The notes under the pieces: model-generated
What the model saw: the letters and a program-made list of their open reading frames with translations, nothing else
Told to the model about the DNA's origin: nothing
The model's database searches: none
Shown: in pieces, positions 42,929 through 54,024 of the stretch
How the letters are laid out: each line of letters opens with the position of its first letter
How positions within the stretch are numbered: the first letter of the stretch is position 1
Assembly: GCA_045545475.1 (NCBI GenBank)
Contig: JAZQAZ010000041.1
Span: 58,354-122,353 of the forward strand
Length of the DNA: 64,000 nt
Reading direction: 5' to 3'
Source of the DNA: Clostridia bacterium
Lineage (GTDB): Bacteria > Bacillota > Clostridia > CAKSNL01 > HGM11501
Program-made: the position numbers and the translations under genes

Positions 42929-44455
42929 TCAGCCTGCACCCAGGGGCATGTCGGAAAGATTATCGTAAATGAGATTTGAAAACTTGACATTGCTGATTCC
43001 TACAGCGTAAGGATTTTCTGTTTCACCGAGATAAAGCTGCACTGATTTAACCAGGGTTTTGTCGGCGTTGAAATCGGCACAATATACATCCTTTGTTTCG
43101 TTTACGCTGTATAATACATTACCCACGGAGTCTATCACATCATAGCTCATATCAAAGCTCCTTAAGAACTTTCCGCCCGGGAGAACTGCATCGATTATAA
43201 CAGAGGGGTCATTATCGCCGAAGATAGCCGCACGCAGTGTGATGTTTCCGCCCATTGCATATACATATCTTTCACGGATTCCTGAATAGAGGCTTTCCAC
43301 AAGCGAGTAGTCAGCATCGTAAAGTTCAGGACAGTTAAAGCCGGGAATATCTTCATAAAGTATTCCCATGGTCTTTTCAAGAACCGTCATGGCTTTTCCG
43401 TAGTCTTTTTTGCTTTCATAATAGTTAACAATTTCAATAAGGAAATCGTCCTCTTTCATCCAGCCTGCCGAAGTATATGCATAAACCTCTGATTCCGGAA
43501 CTGCACAGCATCTGAAATCAGATGTGTAAAGTGACACATAATTTTCAGTTATATTTCTTATTGTCGGATTTAAAATTTCACCGAGCTTTCCGTAGTTTAT
43601 ATTGCTTGTAGCTTTCCTGAACTCACTTAAGGAATGTGTTTTTATAAATTCATACAGACATTTTTCGCCATCCTCTGCCTTGTACCATCCGTTAGCAAGG
43701 AAATGGGATGCCATATCATTTCTTACACTGATAACCCGTTCTGCTTCGTTTTCCGTAATCAATCTGAAAAGTGTCGTAAATCCTTCGTAATCTTTTACTC
43801 CCCATGCATAGTTGGGAGAACATGAATTCGTATAGGTTCCGTACATAAGCGAATCTGCATATACATCTGAGAGCTTATGCTTTTCTTCTTTAACCTCGCT
43901 TCCGTTTATGCTGTAAGTATAAAAATATCCGGTATCCGCAAAATCCTGTGTTGTAACTTCAAGCTTTTTATCTTCCGAAAAGCTTATGTTCCAGCCAAAC
44001 TTCTGTCCCCAATCCCATGTCAGGGGAAAATAAAGAACATTCTTATAGTTAAGTATGGGATAAGTCTCTGCTGCATTATTGATTTTCTCGCCCAGCACTG
44101 TTATAGGTGTCGTTACAACCGTAGCTGTTTCGCCCTTCTTAGTGTATGAAAACAAGGGATCAATAAATTCTTTATACACGCCGGAAGGTGTCATCTTATC
44201 TATTACGTTACCGGTTTCAGCTGACCAGTTGTTGAAAAGACCCAAAAACGCACAATCGTCATAAGTCATGGGGAAATACGTTATGGAATTACAAAGAAGA
44301 AACGGATATTCCCTTGCGGCATTTTCCACGATTCTTCCGTTTATAACAATAGGGAATTCCGCCTTGATTACCGGAACCACTCCCGACGCTCCGCTTATCG
44401 GAACCAAAGCCAATACCATTAACACCAAGAGAGTCAATGCGATAATTTTTTTCAT
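42929..44455 (-). CDS. Secreted protein with N-terminal copper-amine-oxidase-N-like (stalk) repeats; C-terminal function unknown
   Basis: Signal peptide MKKIIAL (ATG 44455, RBS AAGGAG); two YP.L.Y..I/V.YFP.T repeats. Confidence 0.7.
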   Translation of the reverse strand: MKKIIALTLLVLMVLALVPISGASGVVPVIKAEFPIVINGRIVENAAREYPFLLCNSITYFPMTYDDCAFLGLFNNWSAETGNVIDKMTPSGVYKEFIDPLFSYTKKGETATVVTTPITVLGEKINNAAETYPILNYKNVLYFPLTWDWGQKFGWNISFSEDKKLEVTTQDFADTGYFYTYSINGSEVKEEKHKLSDVYADSLMYGTYTNSCSPNYAWGVKDYEGFTTLFRLITENEAERVISVRNDMASHFLANGWYKAEDGEKCLYEFIKTHSLSEFRKATSNINYGKLGEILNPTIRNITENYVSLYTSDFRCCAVPESEVYAYTSAGWMKEDDFLIEIVNYYESKKDYGKAMTVLEKTMGILYEDIPGFNCPELYDADYSLVESLYSGIRERYVYAMGGNITLRAAIFGDNDPSVIIDAVLPGGKFLRSFDMSYDVIDSVGNVLYSVNETKDVYCADFNADKTLVKSVQLYLGETENPYAVGISNVKFSNLIYDNLSDMPLGAG

Positions 44456-44472
44456 ATATACATCTCCTTTTT

Positions 44473-45900
44473 TTACCAGCTGCAAAGGCCGGTTGCTTCC
44501 TGAATTTTCCATAATATACCCATAAAGAATCCATCTTCATAATATTCTTCTATGGGAAGAGTATATTCTCCGTCCTCGTTATTCCATATGCGGTCAAAGT
44601 AAGCGTTTATTTCCTCTGCCCTGATATCGGTGCTTTTCATTACTATCTCCGCATCGGTTTCCAGATTATATCCGCCTATATTACGCCTTGTGAAATTGGC
44701 GCTTCCCAATATAACCTTGGTTTCTCCGCTTTTCCCATAATTAAAGACCGCTGTTTTCCCGTGATACTGCTCACCTTTTGTCGCATACCATCTGACATCC
44801 ACGTTTTCGTGTTCCTCGTAAAGCTCGCAAAGTGCCGAACGGTTTGGACTTCCGTTTTTCTCCATTCCGAAGGCATCCTTGTTAGGATCGGCAACAATTC
44901 TCACATCTGCTCCCCTGTCTGCAGCTCTGCCGAGAGCTTTAAGTATATCAAAATCCGATATGTAGAAAATACCGAGTCTTACCTCATCTCCCTTGCCAAC
45001 CTCATTAATACTTTCCACAAGAGAATTTTTAATTTCTTTTTCGGTAATTATCCTTATTTTTGGAGAATCTTCATTTCGTTCTCCCTCATAACTGTATGTA
45101 ACGGAAGGAACTTCTCCACCTGATAAAGCAATTACTGTTTTCTCTGTCTCAAGAAGATCTGCTACTACATCACCCTTAACCCTTACTGCAATGTTAGAAT
45201 GGAAGCTACTGGGATCGTGAGGATTTGCCGATGAAACCATCGCCTCTTTTTCGGTAATTACAACCTTACGGTGATTTGCCTTAAAGTTCGCAAGTTTTAT
45301 AACAGAACGCAGGTTCACTTTATGTGCATCCTTTTCAAAAAAGTTTGGAAGCCAGCAAAGGCCCTTTGTCCCGAACCACCTTGTATAACAACGGTAGTAT
45401 CCCGATACAAGGATATTTGAATCCTTAAGAGAATTAAGCTCGGTTATTACAACATCTACTCCCGCTTCTTTAAGCTTTGTAATATACTTCTGTTCATAAG
45501 CCCCGTAAAAATTGTTTATAGGATCGGTTATAAGAATTACCGGCATATCGGGGTTTTCCCGTTTTTTACCGATGAGTGCATCAGTAACTTTTCCAACAGA
45601 CTCAGGATAAATTCCCGACTCTTTGTTATATTCATCGTTATAAAGGAAAAGGTCTGCAATAACAAACTCCTCTGCTTCATTTATAAGCCTGAGTTTTTCA
45701 TTTAAAATATTATGTTCTCTTACAGTTTCTCCGTCCTTCTCATAACTTAAATCATATATAAATTCAAATTCTTCAGTGGGAACATATTCTCCTTTGAAAG
45801 AAGTTCCGTCAGGCATTTTTGTAATTGCACTTATAATTAACGGGACAATCAGAATCACTGTTATGATAAGTGCTGTTATTTTTCTTTTCGCCTTTTTCAA
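44473..45900 (-). CDS. Membrane-anchored phospholipase D family protein
   Basis: N-terminal TM; NHRK....E..SSAN and HGK....N..GSANFTRRN HKD-like motifs. Confidence 0.85.
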   Translation of the reverse strand: MKKAKRKITALIITVILIVPLIISAITKMPDGTSFKGEYVPTEEFEFIYDLSYEKDGETVREHNILNEKLRLINEAEEFVIADLFLYNDEYNKESGIYPESVGKVTDALIGKKRENPDMPVILITDPINNFYGAYEQKYITKLKEAGVDVVITELNSLKDSNILVSGYYRCYTRWFGTKGLCWLPNFFEKDAHKVNLRSVIKLANFKANHRKVVITEKEAMVSSANPHDPSSFHSNIAVRVKGDVVADLLETEKTVIALSGGEVPSVTYSYEGERNEDSPKIRIITEKEIKNSLVESINEVGKGDEVRLGIFYISDFDILKALGRAADRGADVRIVADPNKDAFGMEKNGSPNRSALCELYEEHENVDVRWYATKGEQYHGKTAVFNYGKSGETKVILGSANFTRRNIGGYNLETDAEIVMKSTDIRAEEINAYFDRIWNNEDGEYTLPIEEYYEDGFFMGILWKIQEATGLCSW

Positions 45901-48731: not shown

Positions 48732-48762
48732 AAAAACCGGCGGAGAATCTCCGCCGGTTTTT
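48732..48762. terminator. Bidirectional terminator
   Basis: AAAAACCGGCGGAG-AAT-CTCCGCCGGTTTTT. Confidence 0.88.
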
Positions 48763-49534
48763 ATTTTTTCTCTATATCGTAGCCTATTTCATCAATCATT
48801 CGCTCAATATCCGCATCCTCCGGATTTTCAGGCAATCTATAATATCTGCATCTGCTGAGAAAATATCTTAAATTATCGTCAATTTCCACATCCCCGACCA
48901 ATACAGGAATAACATTTCCTTTTCGCTTTATGGCATAAGCCACCTCGCTTAACATTTCCGCACTTTTTACCGACTCAGACGTAATCAGTGCCATAACGCA
49001 TCCGTCCCTTGATGCTTCCGTGATTGCATTTGTAATTGTGCTCGCATACGGTTGCCCGGGCATAATATCGTCATAATCAAAAAACACGACATAATCCTTT
49101 TCTTCAAGCTTTTTCTTTATCCTTCCGGCAAGCACAGTATCAAAATATTTTCTTGAATAAGAAATATATACTCTTAGATTGTGAAGGATTTTTTCTATAG
49201 CTTCAATGATAGATTTTTCATCATTAATATCAATGGGGATTATCTTTCTTTTATCGGTCTTCTTTATATACTCCCTTTCAAGTGTAACCCATTTTGATTT
49301 TCTTGAGTTTTCGCTGTCCACAAATATAAACCATTCGCGCGCATCTATTTCACGCTTTATAAGGTCTTCTATTTCGCTGTCGTCATCCAGGCATTTAAGA
49401 TAAAAGCAAAGAGGTTCGAATCCTTTTTCTTCAAGGGCGTTTCTGATAACCCTCACTCTTTCAATATCAGCGTGGGAATGAGAAAGGAAAATATATCCTC
49501 CCTTACCCTTTTTAAGCTTATCAAAAATTCCCAT
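48761..49534 (-). CDS. Tandem TIR-TIR domain protein
   Basis: TIR1 IFLSHS..D...SENS..S.WV..E; TIR2 VYISYS..VFFD...I.PG...SESVKS.....E; ATG 49534; promoter TTGACT-N17-TATAAT at 49635-49607. Confidence 0.85.
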   Translation of the reverse strand: MGIFDKLKKGKGGYIFLSHSHADIERVRVIRNALEEKGFEPLCFYLKCLDDDSEIEDLIKREIDAREWFIFVDSENSRKSKWVTLEREYIKKTDKRKIIPIDINDEKSIIEAIEKILHNLRVYISYSRKYFDTVLAGRIKKKLEEKDYVVFFDYDDIMPGQPYASTITNAITEASRDGCVMALITSESVKSAEMLSEVAYAIKRKGNVIPVLVGDVEIDDNLRYFLSRCRYYRLPENPEDADIERMIDEIGYDIEKK

Positions 49535-49536
49535 AC

Positions 49537-49584
49537 TTACCACCCTTCCTCTGCTTTCAATAATTCAAATAAATCCATTTCCAT
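49537..49584 (-). other. 15-codon upstream ORF or gene remnant (MEMDLFELLKAEEGW)
   Basis: Has its own RBS AGGGGG; stops 2 nt before the TIR-TIR ATG. Confidence 0.4.
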
Positions 49585-49753: not shown

Positions 49754-52171
49754 ATGATATGTATGAAAAAGATAAATATATTTCTTGCATCATCCATTAC
49801 TGAATTTAACACCGAACGCATGGATATCGAAAATTTCATCCGTAAAGTGAGCGACAAATTTGAAGACCGTTATGGCGTTAAAATCCAGCCTCTTTTATGC
49901 GAAAATTTCGATGATGCATATACAGTAAAAAGAAAACAGGAAGAATATAACGAACAGATAAGAAAAAGCGATTTTTGCTATTTTATCTTCTTTACCAAGG
50001 TCGGAACTTACACCAGAGAAGAGTTTGACGTTGCAAGAAAGCAATTTGAAGATACCAAGAAACCCAAAATTTACACCTATTTCAAAACTCTTGGCGAAGG
50101 CGACCGTGCCGAGCAAAGCCTATTTGATTTCATGGAAGAGCTTGACAAAACCTTTGGCCATTACTACGGTAATTTTTCGCATATCGATACCTTGAAACTC
50201 CGTATCCTTCTGAATCTTAAGCTTGAAGAAATGAATTTTCTTGAGATAAAAGCCGAAAACGGAAAGTGTGTTGTTGACGGTGCAGATATCCTGCCACTCT
50301 CCAACGTGATGGAATTTGCCAACAACAGCGGACTCCAAAAACTTAATGCAGAGCTTTCGGTGATAGAAAAGGAATATCTTAAGCTTAAACCGCTTTATGC
50401 AAAGGGCGGAAACGATTCTGCGTTTTACAGCAGATACAGCACAGTCGCATCGAAAAGGCAGGCAATAAAAGACGAAATAGACAATCTTCAGAAGCTGATA
50501 TTTGCCGTTTCACTCCGCATGACGGAAGACGATGCCAAAGGAACTATCACAGAACGTCAGAAGGAAGCCTACCGCCTTTTTGAAATGGGAGACTATGAAG
50601 GCTGTATGTCGGTACTTAATTCTGATGATATAGACTCGGATTTTTTAAGAGAACGAAAAAAACTTAAAGAACAAAACGAAGCCGTATGCAGAAAATATAT
50701 AAAAGAGCATAAAACCGCAATAGACATTTTAAGTTCAATGACAGAGTACGACGAACGCTTTAAGGAAATTGGAGAAAGATATGAGAAAATCTTACCGGTA
50801 ATACTTGAAGAAGGCATAGAACTTGATACTGCACTGGAATACGGAAGATATCTTTTAGGCCAGAATTCCGACGAAAAGGCTCTTTCCGTCATAAACACTC
50901 TGCTTCCGCATTGTGATGATAACAAGGTCATTCTTTCCGCTCTTTACAATCTTTCAGGCATCATAAACCAAAACCTCAACAACACGGATAAGGCTGAGGA
51001 ATTTTATCTCAAATCCATCGGATTAAGGGAGGATTTAGCCACAAAAGATCCTGCAAAATTCCGCTCGGAACTGGCTGTAAGTTATAACAACATAAGCATT
51101 TTTTACAAAGACAATAATAATTCCAAAGAAGCCATACGCTACTGCCTTCTTGCAATTTCAATTTATGACGAACTTTCAGACATATATCCCGGAAAATATA
51201 CCGGTGAAACGGCTACAATATACCATAATTCCGGAGTCCTTTTTGATCAGCAGGGAAATCATGAAGATGCAGAAAAATATTTTCTCAAAGCGATAAAACT
51301 TAAAGAAGCTCTTTCAAAAGAAAACCCATTAAAATACAATCCATCACTGGCCCAATCCTATAACAGTGCCGGTCTTTTCTATACAAACCGGGGAAAATAT
51401 GACAAGGCCGAGCCCTACGTTCACTCTGCAATAAAACTTATAAGCGAAGCCGCAAAAACAAATCCGGACAAGTACAATCCTGATCTCGGTGCCATCTATT
51501 TCAACACCGGCATATGTTATGCCAACCAGGGAATAATGGATAAAGCCGAGTCATATTACCACAATGCCATAAGCATTTATGAAACTTTGGCCCAAAATAA
51601 CCCTGCCAAGTTCAGTTCGCTTCTTGTAAGAGTATATAATGCTATAAGTGTATTTTATTCATCCGTAGGCTTAATTTTAGACAGTAGTAAATATGTTAAT
51701 CTTGCCATAGATAAATTAAAACCGCTCTATGAGGAAAATCCGGACAAATTCAGCGAGCTTTTAGCAGAATCCTACGGCAATGCCGGCAATTTACATTCTT
51801 CACTGGGAGATTTTGAAACAGCCGGAAAATACATACTGTCGGGTTTGGAGATTTTCACTTCCCTTGCCGATAAAAATCCCGATAGATTTCTTCCAGGTCT
51901 TGCCAAGGGATATAACAATGCCGCCGTTTTTTACAAAAAACAAAACAAATTCAGCGAGGCTGATTCATACTATAAAAAAGCAATGGAGAAATTCGAGGTG
52001 CTTTCCGAAAAGGACCCTGACTCCTATTTACCCATCCTTGCAATGATAATGTTTAACTACGGCGTTTTCGCCACAGATTACAAAGTCCTTGAAAAGGCTC
52101 TTGCCATTGCCGAAAAATATCCTCAAAATCCCAGATGTCAAAAAATCATTGCCTACTTGGGCCAAAAATAA
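49754..52171 (+). CDS. DUF4062/TIR-like N-terminal domain + helical linker + TPR array protein
   Basis: IFLASS..F..ER, QEEYN..IRKSD..FIF..KVG.YT.EEF..A; repeated LA..YN..G..Y..A..YY..AI TPRs with ~45-aa period; promoter TTGACC-N17-TATGAT. Confidence 0.82.
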   Translation: MICMKKINIFLASSITEFNTERMDIENFIRKVSDKFEDRYGVKIQPLLCENFDDAYTVKRKQEEYNEQIRKSDFCYFIFFTKVGTYTREEFDVARKQFEDTKKPKIYTYFKTLGEGDRAEQSLFDFMEELDKTFGHYYGNFSHIDTLKLRILLNLKLEEMNFLEIKAENGKCVVDGADILPLSNVMEFANNSGLQKLNAELSVIEKEYLKLKPLYAKGGNDSAFYSRYSTVASKRQAIKDEIDNLQKLIFAVSLRMTEDDAKGTITERQKEAYRLFEMGDYEGCMSVLNSDDIDSDFLRERKKLKEQNEAVCRKYIKEHKTAIDILSSMTEYDERFKEIGERYEKILPVILEEGIELDTALEYGRYLLGQNSDEKALSVINTLLPHCDDNKVILSALYNLSGIINQNLNNTDKAEEFYLKSIGLREDLATKDPAKFRSELAVSYNNISIFYKDNNNSKEAIRYCLLAISIYDELSDIYPGKYTGETATIYHNSGVLFDQQGNHEDAEKYFLKAIKLKEALSKENPLKYNPSLAQSYNSAGLFYTNRGKYDKAEPYVHSAIKLISEAAKTNPDKYNPDLGAIYFNTGICYANQGIMDKAESYYHNAISIYETLAQNNPAKFSSLLVRVYNAISVFYSSVGLILDSSKYVNLAIDKLKPLYEENPDKFSELLAESYGNAGNLHSSLGDFETAGKYILSGLEIFTSLADKNPDRFLPGLAKGYNNAAVFYKKQNKFSEADSYYKKAMEKFEVLSEKDPDSYLPILAMIMFNYGVFATDYKVLEKALAIAEKYPQNPRCQKIIAYLGQK

Positions 52172-52240
52172 AAAAACAATTCCACCTTTTTCCTTACATA
52201 AAAATTCCTCACTCGTACAAAATAGATTTGTAAATAAAAA

Positions 52241-52299
52241 CGGAACGGATAAATCCGTTCCCTACGATTAATTTGTAGGGTGTGCATTTATGCACACCG
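52241..52299. repeat. Inverted pair of GTAG-type REP palindromes (REPIN-like)
   Basis: Minus GTAGGGAACGGA-TTTA-TCCGTTCCG (52265-52241) and plus GTAGGGTGTGCA-TTTA-TGCACACCG (52275-52299). Confidence 0.7.
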
Positions 52300-52326
52300 T
52301 TTAAATTAAAGGAGTTAATATATTTA

Positions 52327-52425
52327 TATGAAAGCAACAGGAATTGTAAGAAGAATCGACGACCTTGGTCATGTTGTTATCCCCAAAGAAATAAGAAGAA
52401 CTTTAAAAATCCGTGAGGGCGACCC
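52327..52425 (+). repeat. 99-bp direct repeat, copy 1 (spoVT 5' end)
   Basis: Identical to 53481-53579 except A52371 versus G53525. Confidence 0.95.
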
Positions 52426-52510
52426 CTCTCGTATAACATTGACACCTTTCGACAGGTTTTGTATGGCAGTACATAGCGTGGCGGAAAGATATAAAGGAAC
52501 AGCGGAGTGA
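52328..52510 (+). pseudogene. Truncated spoVT copy: 33 codons of the AbrB-like domain fused to an unrelated tail
   Basis: MKATGIVRRIDDLGHVVIPKEIRRTLKIREGDP then SRITLTPF...; RBS AAAGGAG. Confidence 0.8.
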
Positions 52511-52529
52511 ATTTCACTCCGCTGTTTTT
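52498..52529. terminator. Bidirectional terminator
   Basis: AACAGCGGAGTGAA-T-TTCACTCCGCTGTT. Confidence 0.85.
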
Positions 52530-53353
52530 AGTGCAATCGCCCAATCATAAGGTATTTTTAACTTGCCTTTGCCGATACCAAGTTTTATATCTGGTTTGTT
52601 TTCTCCGTGGAAATCACTTCCACCGCTATATTTTAATTCGAATTCTTTAGCTAATTCAACAGCTTCTTTGGTGGCCGTTGTGCTATAGAGCGAATAATAA
52701 CACTCCATTCCAACTAATCCTTGTTTTTTTGCTAACGGCAAAAGAATTTCCAACTCATCTTTTGTTAAATTTAGAAAAGGATGTGCCAATACGGGTGTTG
52801 CACCAATTGATTTTATAAAATCAATCATTTCAAAGAGACATAATCTTTGGGGCTCTTTGTAATGACCTGAGGAAGGTGATAATAGTGTGTCAAACGCTTC
52901 TTTTATCGAAGAGGTATACCCTTTTTTTGTTAACTCAGCGGCTATATGTGCACGGTTAAACTTTCCATTTGGCGTAGAACCTTTTATCGTATCATAGTGT
53001 ATTTTATATCCCGCTCGATTTAGGGACTCTATTAAAGCTATGTTGCTTTGTCGCTTTTTTTCGTTCACATCATTCATCAAATCAGCAACTTTATCAAAGT
53101 TCTTTTCAGGAATATAAAGACCTAAAAGATGCAGTTCTGTTCCGTTGTAGTCAACCGAAAACTCTGCACCTGCAATCGGTTGAATGTTTTTATTATTGGC
53201 AGCTGCTAAAAAATCGTGTAACCCATCCACTGTGTTATGGTCACACAATGCAACGGCTGATAAACCGATATTAACTGCTGAATCTATAATTTCTTCTGGG
53301 GTATATGTTCCGTCAGAATAAATTGAATGAGTATGTAAATCACAAGTTTTCAT
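52514..53353 (-). CDS. PHP domain phosphoesterase (TrpH/YciV-like)
   Basis: DLHTHS.YSDG, CDHN, GAE, HLLG, LAHP, GGSDFHG; ATG 53353 after GGAGG. Confidence 0.93.
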   Translation of the reverse strand: MKTCDLHTHSIYSDGTYTPEEIIDSAVNIGLSAVALCDHNTVDGLHDFLAAANNKNIQPIAGAEFSVDYNGTELHLLGLYIPEKNFDKVADLMNDVNEKKRQSNIALIESLNRAGYKIHYDTIKGSTPNGKFNRAHIAAELTKKGYTSSIKEAFDTLLSPSSGHYKEPQRLCLFEMIDFIKSIGATPVLAHPFLNLTKDELEILLPLAKKQGLVGMECYYSLYSTTATKEAVELAKEFELKYSGGSDFHGENKPDIKLGIGKGKLKIPYDWAIALKTAE

Positions 53354-53412
53354 ATTCAAACCTCCGCCTTTAATTTATTATATCACAATCAATCAAAAAA
53401 ATCAATGCCAAT

Positions 53413-53442
53413 AGTATAAATCTCATCCATTTGCAGATACTA
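53413..53442 (+). promoter_or_regulatory. Putative forespore SigG/SigF promoter of spoVT
   Basis: GTATA-N18-GATACTA upstream of the RBS AAGGAG. Confidence 0.55.
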
Positions 53443-53481
53443 ACAGTACAAATCTGTAAAACAAGGAGATTATATATATCT

Positions 53482-54024
53482 ATGAAAGCAACAGGAATTG
53501 TAAGAAGAATCGACGACCTTGGTCGTGTTGTTATCCCCAAAGAAATAAGAAGAACTTTAAAAATCCGTGAGGGCGACCCGCTGGAAATTTATACCAACGC
53601 TTCAGGCGAGGTAATTTTCAAAAAGTACTCCCCCATCGGAGAGCTTTCGGAATTTGCCTCAACTTATGCCGAAACCTTATCCAAAACCTCAGGACGCCCT
53701 GTTTGCATAACAGACAAGGACAATGTAATTGCGGTCTACGGCATTCCCAAAAAGGAGCTTGCCGAAAAGAAATTGAGTCCCGAGCTTGAGCAATTAATAA
53801 CAGAACGTACCCGCTTTGTTATGAAACCCGGGCAGATAAAGCGATGTGAAATCGCCGACGGAACGGACAAATACTTAGCAGGTGTAGTTATGCCTATAAT
53901 ATCAGAAGGCGATCCCGTAGGTTCTGTTGTAATGATGGATGACGGAAATTCCGAAATACGCGAAATTGACGAAAAGCTGGCAGAATCCGCCGCAGGCTTT
54001 TTAGGTAAGCAAATGGAAATATAA
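53482..54024 (+). CDS. spoVT: Stage V sporulation protein T
   Basis: MKATGIVRRIDDLGRVVIPKEIRRTL.IREGDPLEI..KKYSPIGEL + GAF-like C-domain ending AAGFLGKQM. Confidence 0.97.
   Translation: MKATGIVRRIDDLGRVVIPKEIRRTLKIREGDPLEIYTNASGEVIFKKYSPIGELSEFASTYAETLSKTSGRPVCITDKDNVIAVYGIPKKELAEKKLSPELEQLITERTRFVMKPGQIKRCEIADGTDKYLAGVVMPIISEGDPVGSVVMMDDGNSEIREIDEKLAESAAGFLGKQMEI

Follow-up and report, generated by a model that had tools for sequence, protein, structure and literature searches.

A duplicated spoVT 5' end around a PHP gene in a Clostridia genome, probably the relic of a large serine recombinase element family

Introduction

Why should the first 33 codons of spoVT, the gene of a key sporulation regulator, stand a second time in front of the intact gene, with an unrelated gene between the two copies? 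The question is raised by a stretch of 64,000 nucleotides from a Clostridia bacterium (GenBank assembly GCA_045545475.1, contig JAZQAZ010000041.1, positions 58,354 to 122,353), here called the window, in which a truncated spoVT copy, an oppositely oriented gene for a PHP-family phosphoesterase and a full-length spoVT follow one another. The original prediction, made from the DNA letters, had taken this arrangement for a candidate gene-capture hotspot. The analysis described here suggests that the 1154-bp unit is probably a relic cassette, devoid of a recombinase, of a family of elements that integrate at codons 31-33 (GDP) of spoVT by means of a large serine recombinase (LSR).

The sections of published work drawn on here describe intervening elements in sigK (skin/SpoIVCA), spsM (SPbeta/SprA-SprB), spoVFB (vfbin), gerE (gin) and yabG (yin) (PMC10747680; also PMC5595907, PMC4191935, PMC5499854), and the targets listed there are mother-cell genes (PMC10747680). 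spoVT is described as sigma-G dependent (PMC3738446). No report of spoVT as the target of an intervening element or a serine recombinase was found in the literature searched, subscription journals not being covered.

Results

The truncated copy ends at an LSR attachment site

The two copies form a direct repeat of 117 nt (52309-52425 and 53463-53579) with 112/117 identical positions (96%, five mismatches) and a start-to-start spacing of 1154 bp, and a search of all 50 contigs (2.74 Mb) returned these two copies only. Four of the mismatches lie in the 19 nt between AAGGAG and ATG; the one in the coding part, CAT in copy 1 against CGT in copy 2, gives His15 against Arg15. Identity stops after GACCC, coding base 99 being C in copy 1 and G in copy 2, so that the coding part of the repeat is 98 nt long and identical at 97/98 positions. 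The repeat, its single coding mismatch and its spacing were thus correctly described in the original prediction, with the length to be amended from 99 bp to these 98 nt. Since the closest congeners match the same 99 nt at only 85-87 positions, the near-identity of the two copies goes beyond ordinary conservation.

The nature of the junction is suggested by relatives in which spoVT is split. One of these is G039, in which spoVT codons 1-34 stand at the start of a 25.6-kb contig and the gene from codon 31 onward at its end, with restriction-modification genes and a 536-aa LSR in between. The gene is split at the same place in G114, G063, G219 and G399, and at the attR of the split genes the open reading frame (ORF) of the LSR runs '...SEGDP/LEIF...' into spoVT codons 34-180. 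In the left-junction sequence the family form reads GACCCG followed by TCACTGATAACATTGACAC, whereas the window has GACCC followed by CTCTCGTATAACATTGACAC; the window junction and its P' arm are conserved in the attL of G114, G125, G399, G063, G219 and others. G114, G063 and G219 have the P arm GTGTCAATGTTATCA...GACCC at their attR; it is an inverted repeat of the P' arm, the two arms lying as inverted repeats around GGGGACCC. Because the host half-site meets, across a short core, an element half-site that mirrors the attR P arm, the copy 1 junction is an attL of the spoVT-targeting LSR family. The comparison with relatives bears out the earlier suggestion that the GGCGACCC junction is a true recombination junction, placing it at the crossover core of an LSR attachment site. 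The accompanying idea, that the element carries a copy of the gene end to restore its target, is not supported, given the LSR ORFs of typical family members, which read into the remainder of spoVT, and the native-like character of both 98-nt copies. The TTGACA in the tail belongs to the P' arm and is not a demonstrated promoter, and Rfam gave no match near the gathering score over 52100-53700.

By fuzzy search the P' arm of the window is the sole such site in its genome, and no P arm, attR or second P' arm was found in this 95%-complete genome. Contig C41 has no match to PF07508 or PF00589, that is, no LSR or tyrosine recombinase; the statement that no integrase is present holds, by profile search, for the whole 122-kb contig. 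Nor was a cognate LSR found in the window genome, none of whose LSRs exceeds 25% identity to the spoVT-targeting enzymes (45-56% identical to each other). The 3' part of spoVT occurs once. With neither a cognate enzyme nor the second pair of half-sites found, the cassette cannot move by itself.

Three side observations concern the family. The G039 contig (G039:C32; L071 and L072), with spoVT halves at both ends, resembles a whole LSR element over the ~16.6 of 25.6 kb examined, and its cargo comprises type I restriction-modification genes, two further methylases, an Hsp70-like ATPase and a metallo-beta-lactamase-fold protein. Some family recombinases (P0156, P0164, P0165 and P0173) end in an antisense reading of the spoVT 5' end (...ITTRPRSSI..TIPVAFI), which points to possible junctions in inverted geometry. 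The assemblies of G125 (L186; 99% complete) and G408 (the genome of L075) contain a spoVT stump with the tail only and no spoVT 3' part; either the gene has been lost or the remainder is unassembled.

Table 1. Features of the spoVT locus, in window coordinates
Feature	Position	Strand	Basis or remark
Genus-type (native) spoVT promoter region P1, presumably sigma-G/F-like	52164..52234	+	alignment with congeners; before truncated copy
Insert of ~67 nt, two back-to-back hairpins (repetitive extragenic palindrome-like, GTAG/CTAC-flanked)	52240..52305	.	between P1 and ribosome-binding site 1 (RBS1)
Repeat copy 1: RBS1 and spoVT codons 1-33, B arm of attL	52309..52425	+	repeat search, pairwise alignment
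LSR crossover core GACCC and P' arm CTCTCGTATAACATTGACAC	52421..52445	+	junction comparison with attL of relatives
Tail, 27 codons and stop	52426..52510	+	homology with related LSR tails
Palindromic terminator, hairpin with 13-bp stem	52498..52526	.	loop holds the stop codons of both convergent ORFs
Candidate cargo gene, PHP-family phosphoesterase, 281 aa	52514..53359	-	PF02811; foreign to genus
Foreign spoVT-type promoter P2 and RBS2	53360..53481	+	homology with intergenic region of L075, L076, L077
Intact spoVT, apparently native; first 98 nt = repeat copy 2; attB-type site 53575-53580	53482..54024	+	TIGR02851

The intact gene appears native and the insert foreign

The product of copy 2 scores 237.1 bits against TIGR02851 (cut-off 235.9) and matches PF04014 and PF15714, as expected of a full-length SpoVT. 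The gene is evenly 88% identical in nucleotides to that of G002 along its whole length, and for this reason its body and its first 98 nt are both regarded as native-like; a chimeric copy 2 with a foreign 5' part was considered and rejected on the same evenness. Untouched host sequence stands on both sides of GACCC in copy 2, which makes the site there an attB and not an attR, and it is predicted to be usable by an incoming element. Downstream of spoVT synteny is kept in the genus; the upstream side is hypervariable.

Both upstream regions of the window were aligned with those of 11 relatives, and BLAST agrees with the alignment. The segment 52182-52209 is identical at 28/28 positions to the sequence directly upstream of spoVT in the congener G010, and G009 and G007 are similar there, which shows that P1, in front of the truncated copy, is the native genus-type spoVT promoter. 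By the consensus P1 would be sigma-G/F-like.

The PHP gene product matches PF02811 with 66.6 bits (cut-off 26.4) and falls below the cut-offs of the models for nucleoside bisphosphate phosphatase and RNase RNM. No orthologue was found in 11 congeners, and the closest relatives, 89% and 85% identical, are in other families. In L075, L077 and L080 the PHP gene is the divergent upstream neighbour of spoVT, and the intergenic region between the two genes in L075, L076 and L077 is homologous to the sigma-G-like P2 and to RBS2 of the window, P2 being different from P1. PHP, P2 and RBS2 are, by these comparisons, foreign to the genus; in other lineages they are native upstream neighbours of spoVT. 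On the promoter, PHP and congener comparisons the foreign segment extends from 52426 to ~53475, between the two native-like 98-nt copies.

The proteins encoded on either side of the terminator both end in TAE, their stop codons lying in its loop. This hairpin is also found at the end of PHP in L075, L076 and L081, and more distant PHP genes have other C-termini. In L075 it occurs twice, ~1150 bp apart, around PHP, promoter, spoVT' and tail, which is a circular permutation of the window unit; in the window it has a tail-type flank on the left and a PHP-type flank on the right. The terminator, the opposite-strand PHP gene and the intact spoVT had all been proposed beforehand, and ORFs, domains and hairpin scoring agree with them. 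The PHP gene, said to be more AT-rich, is so only slightly, with a GC fraction of 0.35-0.37 against 0.36-0.46 in the flanks.

The tail resembles the end of a recombinase gene

A protein search listed at least 120 tail-bearing ORFs, 26 of which were read in detail. They are 55-91 aa long (most 57-60) and 77-93% identical over 90-100% of the query, tail included; some carry the source name 'stage V sporulation protein T'. Among 50 distinct DNA sequences, codons 32-38, which hold the core and the P' arm, are conserved at all three codon positions, and codons 41-56 have a ratio of non-synonymous to synonymous differences (pN/pS) of 0.46, Arg54 being kept across switches between the CGN and AGR codon families. 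Among loci without an LSR the tail pN/pS is 0.47-0.56.

By length, the LSRs related to that of G063 form two groups, of ~718-756 aa with a SpoVT_C fusion and of ~582-640 aa without SpoVT_C, which from their sequences would be the integrated and the unintegrated (about 615 aa) state respectively. The short homologues end in GDP or GSP followed by a tail of ~27-35 residues of the form 'S/L-x-x-T-L-T-x-x-E...' in 12/20 cases examined. Since the LSRs have these two types of end, the recombinase gene spans attP, and upon integration its 3' end, with the terminator, is left at attL. The window tail, described beforehand as unrelated, belongs to a family of such attL tails and would, to judge by its homologues, be the last 27 codons of a recombinase gene. 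A dispersed repeat was considered for the tail unit and rejected, as there is one copy in the genome.

Tail units that lack the spoVT part were also seen: unit B of G153, and second units in L216 (7796-7872), L221 (8558-8614) and L184 (4144-4237). The unit of L216 has unrelated DNA beside it and homology that sets in precisely at the crossover core, and these orphan units may be integrations at secondary sites.

The layout recurs with other cargo and in arrays

A tail-bearing ORF is present in 7/399 scored genomes of a sample of the class Clostridia, the window genome included, and in 41/401 genomes of the order of G411 (E <= 1e-17). Of 80 metagenome loci, 53 with such an ORF were kept; among these, the <=6 kb fetched downstream contain an intact spoVT in L197 alone, and a family recombinase lies in the flank of two, L249 and L253. 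The other annotated metagenome loci have defence-type cargo (type I restriction-modification, Schlafen-like, Fic and AAA proteins).

The layout of the window, with stump, cargo, promoter and intact spoVT on one strand, was found in at least seven other genomes or contigs (Table 2). The cargo of the units includes PHP, Fic, DUF5655, a UDG-like protein, an acyltransferase, barstar and unknown proteins, and a tail-Fic-tail fragment module is common to G153 and G752. Of ~17 units seen, 11 have an open ORF and six are fragments or lack a start. No family recombinase was found in the examined stretches of eight window-like loci. An origin of the arrays by simple tandem duplication of one segment was rejected, since the units differ in cargo and tails.

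Table 2. Loci with a layout like that of the window
Locus	Units	Start-to-start distance	Identity to intact copy over 99 nt
G456	1	1121 bp to intact spoVT	82/99
G411	1, start codon lost	1754 bp to intact spoVT	73/99
G153	1, and orphan tail unit	2125 bp to intact spoVT	87/99
G632	1	2203 bp to intact spoVT	79/99
G643	2	2595 bp from first unit to intact spoVT	87-88/99
L197	1	5262 bp to intact spoVT	70/99
G752	4-5	array ~8.5 kb	95/99
G555	1	~15 kb to intact spoVT	

The survey of relatives that had been proposed thus returned what it was meant to look for, stumps ending at GDP with the tail and variable cargo, arrays included. With the junction recurring, the cargo varying and arrays present, the locus is not a one-off duplication of the kind that would have refuted the proposal of a gene-capture hotspot, which is partly supported, in so far as the junction recurs in this way.

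Copy 1 and the hairpins in front of it

The insert of two hairpins between P1 and RBS1 is absent from all 11 aligned relatives, and both hairpins score terminator-like. The first recurs on contigs C5, C13, C29, C30 and C40 of the same genome, and metagenome contigs join ~52209 to ~52321-52328 without the insert. The GTAG/CTAC paired hairpins may be a mobile palindromic element or mark a rearrangement hotspot. Similar hairpins stand at the same spot, between the -10 region and the RBS of a spoVT unit, before the RBS of unit 2 in L306 (G691) and before that of the intact spoVT in L309 (G456).

The ORF of copy 1 (52328-52510) encodes 60 aa, SpoVT residues 1-33 followed by 27 other residues, and matches the AbrB-type profile at positions 1-26 of 48 only. 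Codon 15 is Arg in 49/50 family members, His being found only in copy 1 of the window. In a structure model, residues 40-58 form a helix (mean predicted local distance difference test score 70) in the place of strands 3 and 4 of the swapped-hairpin domain, and the product accordingly lacks a complete SpoVT/AbrB domain. When SpoVT residues 1-58 were modelled as a complex with the 60-aa product, the score was 0.31 (mark 0.32), which counts neither for nor against binding. His15 and the two terminator-like hairpins between P1 and RBS1 suggest that the stump is decaying or silenced in the window genome.

Assembly support

The source genome is a draft of 2.74 Mb in 50 contigs, 95% complete. Independent contigs from two public runs span 52393-53458 and 52415-53228, from the end of copy 1 through the tail and PHP to the second promoter. 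None of the public contig pieces listed bridges a whole repeat copy into both unique flanks, and the chromosomal order of the unit therefore rests on the assembly. Among the joints listed from the contigs of four public runs there was none that skips 1154 bp and no circle or empty-site joint; those skipping 1202-1356 bp have short sides and are compatible with the intact spoVT of relatives. The survey of joints is no evidence about excision either way.

Neighbouring genes

Upstream of the spoVT promoter a protein with two TIR-type domains (48761-49543, minus strand) adjoins an 805-aa TPR-repeat protein (49754-52171, plus strand). The pair lies between the gene of a major facilitator superfamily (MFS) transporter and the spoVT promoter, and in G010 the MFS gene is directly upstream of spoVT; the pair is likely a defence-gene insertion in a hypervariable spot. 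Further upstream in the variable region (42929-45900, minus strand) a 527-aa protein without a Pfam match overlaps the end of a 475-aa PLD-like (PF13091) protein.

Discussion

How the unit may have formed

The unit is probably the recombinase-less relic of an LSR element family that integrates at the GDP codons of spoVT. Its left part would be an orphan attL, in which the host promoter and the first 33 spoVT codons are joined at the crossover core to the P' arm of the element. PHP would be cargo, and P2 and RBS2 would have arrived with the cassette from a lineage in which PHP and spoVT are native neighbours. The formation path that we infer is accretion and cis-mobilisation of the relic, followed by gene conversion between the repeats. 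The circle of a composite element, consisting of the relic unit and an active element, would integrate at the host attB and later excise from its inner attL; alternatively, a circle of the unit could have been inserted by homologous recombination. Either path would leave the stump with the native promoter and the working gene with that of the donor. The recombinase would offer the easiest route to a precise, in-frame restoration at GACCC, by excision between an attL to the right of the relic and attR. Gene conversion over the sole homologous block, the flanks being unrelated, would then homogenise the 98-nt repeats.

As it stands the unit may be a relic of the kind of cis-mobilizable elements (CIMEs), with attL kept and an attB-type site in copy 2, but with attB rather than attR as its right border. 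By the half-site logic of LSRs, excision of the unit in its present form would not be allowed, because copy 2 has an attB-type arm and not a P arm, and on the same logic an LSR-catalysed origin by attL x attB recombination is set aside. An incoming LSR element using the attB in copy 2 could pick up the unit in cis. RecA-type recombination between the repeats would delete the unit and return spoVT to its native promoter behind the hairpin insert, and on this point the original prediction, that 1154 bp would be lost and spoVT left behind another promoter, was right.

Several points weigh against a recombinase-less relic formed in this way. The two copies are 97/98 identical and both native-like, whereas the copies at other loci agree at 70-95/99, and since every transfer model predicts one donor-type copy, the extra step of gene conversion has to be assumed. 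No long recombinase with the window tail subfamily (TPFDRFC.A.HSV.ERYK) was found, only two ORFs of 109-122 aa, which is weak evidence; 8/8 examined loci of this subfamily are without an LSR, and the subfamily may spread without any recombinase. No contig was found to hold a composite of relic units, inner attL, LSR and attR. The two units of G643 have a common promoter type that differs from that of the intact gene, which fits only if the shared type is native there, and the degraded unit of G752 is the one closest to its intact gene, unexpected if new units are added at attB. The public contigs cover only the interior of the unit, and its chromosomal order depends on the assembly.

Other explanations

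The best placed of the alternatives, though unlikely, is a purely homologous or illegitimate origin, in which a split spoVT was repaired by RecA-dependent insertion of foreign DNA, the recombinase being idle after the first integration. The route could be ends-in gap repair of a small circle, by which both 98-nt copies would come out native with no conversion step needed, or recombination at the shared palindromic terminator, for which the hairpin pair bounding the permuted unit of L075 and the mixed flanks of the window hairpin both speak. Yet the only available 5' end of the donor lineage, that of L075, shares identical runs of at most ~11 bases with the native one, a poor substrate for RecA; the left boundary at the LSR core in every locus is left without an explanation, and an independent rare event would be needed in each of at least eight lineages. 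That the junction falls exactly at this core, that arrays with different cargo occur, with the tail-Fic-tail fragment common to two genomes, and that PHP with the tail is found in several lineages would suit an actively mobile minimal cassette, cut and pasted at GACCC in trans by a spoVT-specific recombinase and carrying a restoring promoter and 5' end. This we consider distinctly improbable: the circle would hold a B arm and a P' arm and so be of attL type, which is no partner for attB under the half-site logic; the window genome (G000) and the fetched stretches of G752, G643, G691, G456 and G632 yielded no cognate LSR; 0/2 ORFs between the copies in G411 have a Pfam match; the joints listed from contigs of the four public runs include no circle or empty site; and six of the ~17 units are degraded.

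Selection for the stump itself is a further thought, with the 57-60-aa protein (SpoVT 1-33 and a helix) retained as an AbrB-like modulator in the forespore and the two genes forming a functional arrangement. The fixed ORF length, the retention of Arg54 through codon-family switches, the tail pN/pS (also among loci without an LSR), the predicted helix and the sporulation-type promoter kept by each unit are consistent with it, but the constraint is explained by the past of the tail as a recombinase C-terminus, the DNA-contact residue Arg15 is His in the window as the sole case among 50, two terminator-like hairpins separate P1 from the ORF, and the start codon is lost in G411 and other units are fragments; such a role is very doubtful. 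Least probable by far is an assembly artefact in which a circle or a strain mixture was collapsed into a tandem. The genome is a draft of 50 contigs, a repeat-insert-repeat de Bruijn graph also fits a circle plus empty site, and no listed public contig bridges a repeat copy; against this, the 117-nt repeat is shorter than usual reads, the copies differ at five positions each linked to its own flanks, and independent assemblies show the layout in at least seven other genomes or contigs.

Relation to known systems

The parent family of the probable relic is like the skin-type elements in being LSR-borne, in using one fixed site inside a sporulation gene and in leaving hybrid attL and attR sites. 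The window unit differs from them in having neither an LSR of its own nor attR, and its target gene is not split but already whole, with an attL stump and one cargo gene left over. Arrays of short units of one or two genes with the remnant of a recombination site beside a fixed platform recall integron cassettes. There is, however, no IntI, attI or attC, no tyrosine recombinase on the contig and no Rfam match at gathering score; the conserved unit is an LSR half-site with the tail of a recombinase gene, and the cargo occurs in both orientations with its own expression signals. In mycobacteriophages with integration-dependent immunity, attP reportedly lies inside a gene and integration changes the end of the protein. 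The parent family shares an attP inside a coding sequence and C-termini that differ between the free and the integrated form, but the gene is here that of the recombinase itself, and its integrated form is fused to SpoVT residues 34-180. CIMEs are described for the ICESt1/ICESt3 type in the sections consulted as decayed elements without recombination genes beside a reusable site, which undergo tandem accretion and are moved in cis by an incoming element (PMC5704250). CIMEs use tyrosine recombinases and their attR rebuilds the end of the target, whereas the window belongs with an LSR family whose normal integration splits the gene; what can be used again is an attB, restored in full and preceded by a donor promoter, and cis-mobilisation would be the counterpart of the movement of CIMEs. 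What is new is the relic cassette without a recombinase, together with the exchange of promoters and the arrays at spoVT.

Significance

Elements in mother-cell genes can be excised without loss from the germ line. spoVT acts in the forespore, and for that reason an element inside it poses a conflict between element and host. The locus would carry the traces of a settlement, in which the gene has become whole again at the expense of the recombinase and most of the element, with the scar, the cargo and a foreign promoter staying behind. The 57-60-aa 'SpoVT' ORF ending in a helix offers a sequence marker for such sites, and the loci provide natural attB and attL sites for a little-studied family of serine recombinases. 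Because the layout recurs with different cargo and in arrays, the spoVT site may act as a hotspot of gene capture and promoter swapping for a key sporulation regulator of gut anaerobes that are abundant. More speculatively, and with the odds against it, the 5' end of spoVT could be a natural gene-capture platform in gut Clostridia, where recombinase-less units, each with a sporulation promoter of host or donor, spoVT codons 1-33, an LSR half-site with its tail and one or two cargo genes, stand in arrays of up to 4-5 and pass between species by riding in cis on spoVT-specific LSR elements, a small SpoVT-derived peptide being expressed from each unit in the forespore. If true, a large serine recombinase would here underlie a function like that of integrons, with the promoter of a forespore master regulator exchanged at every move.

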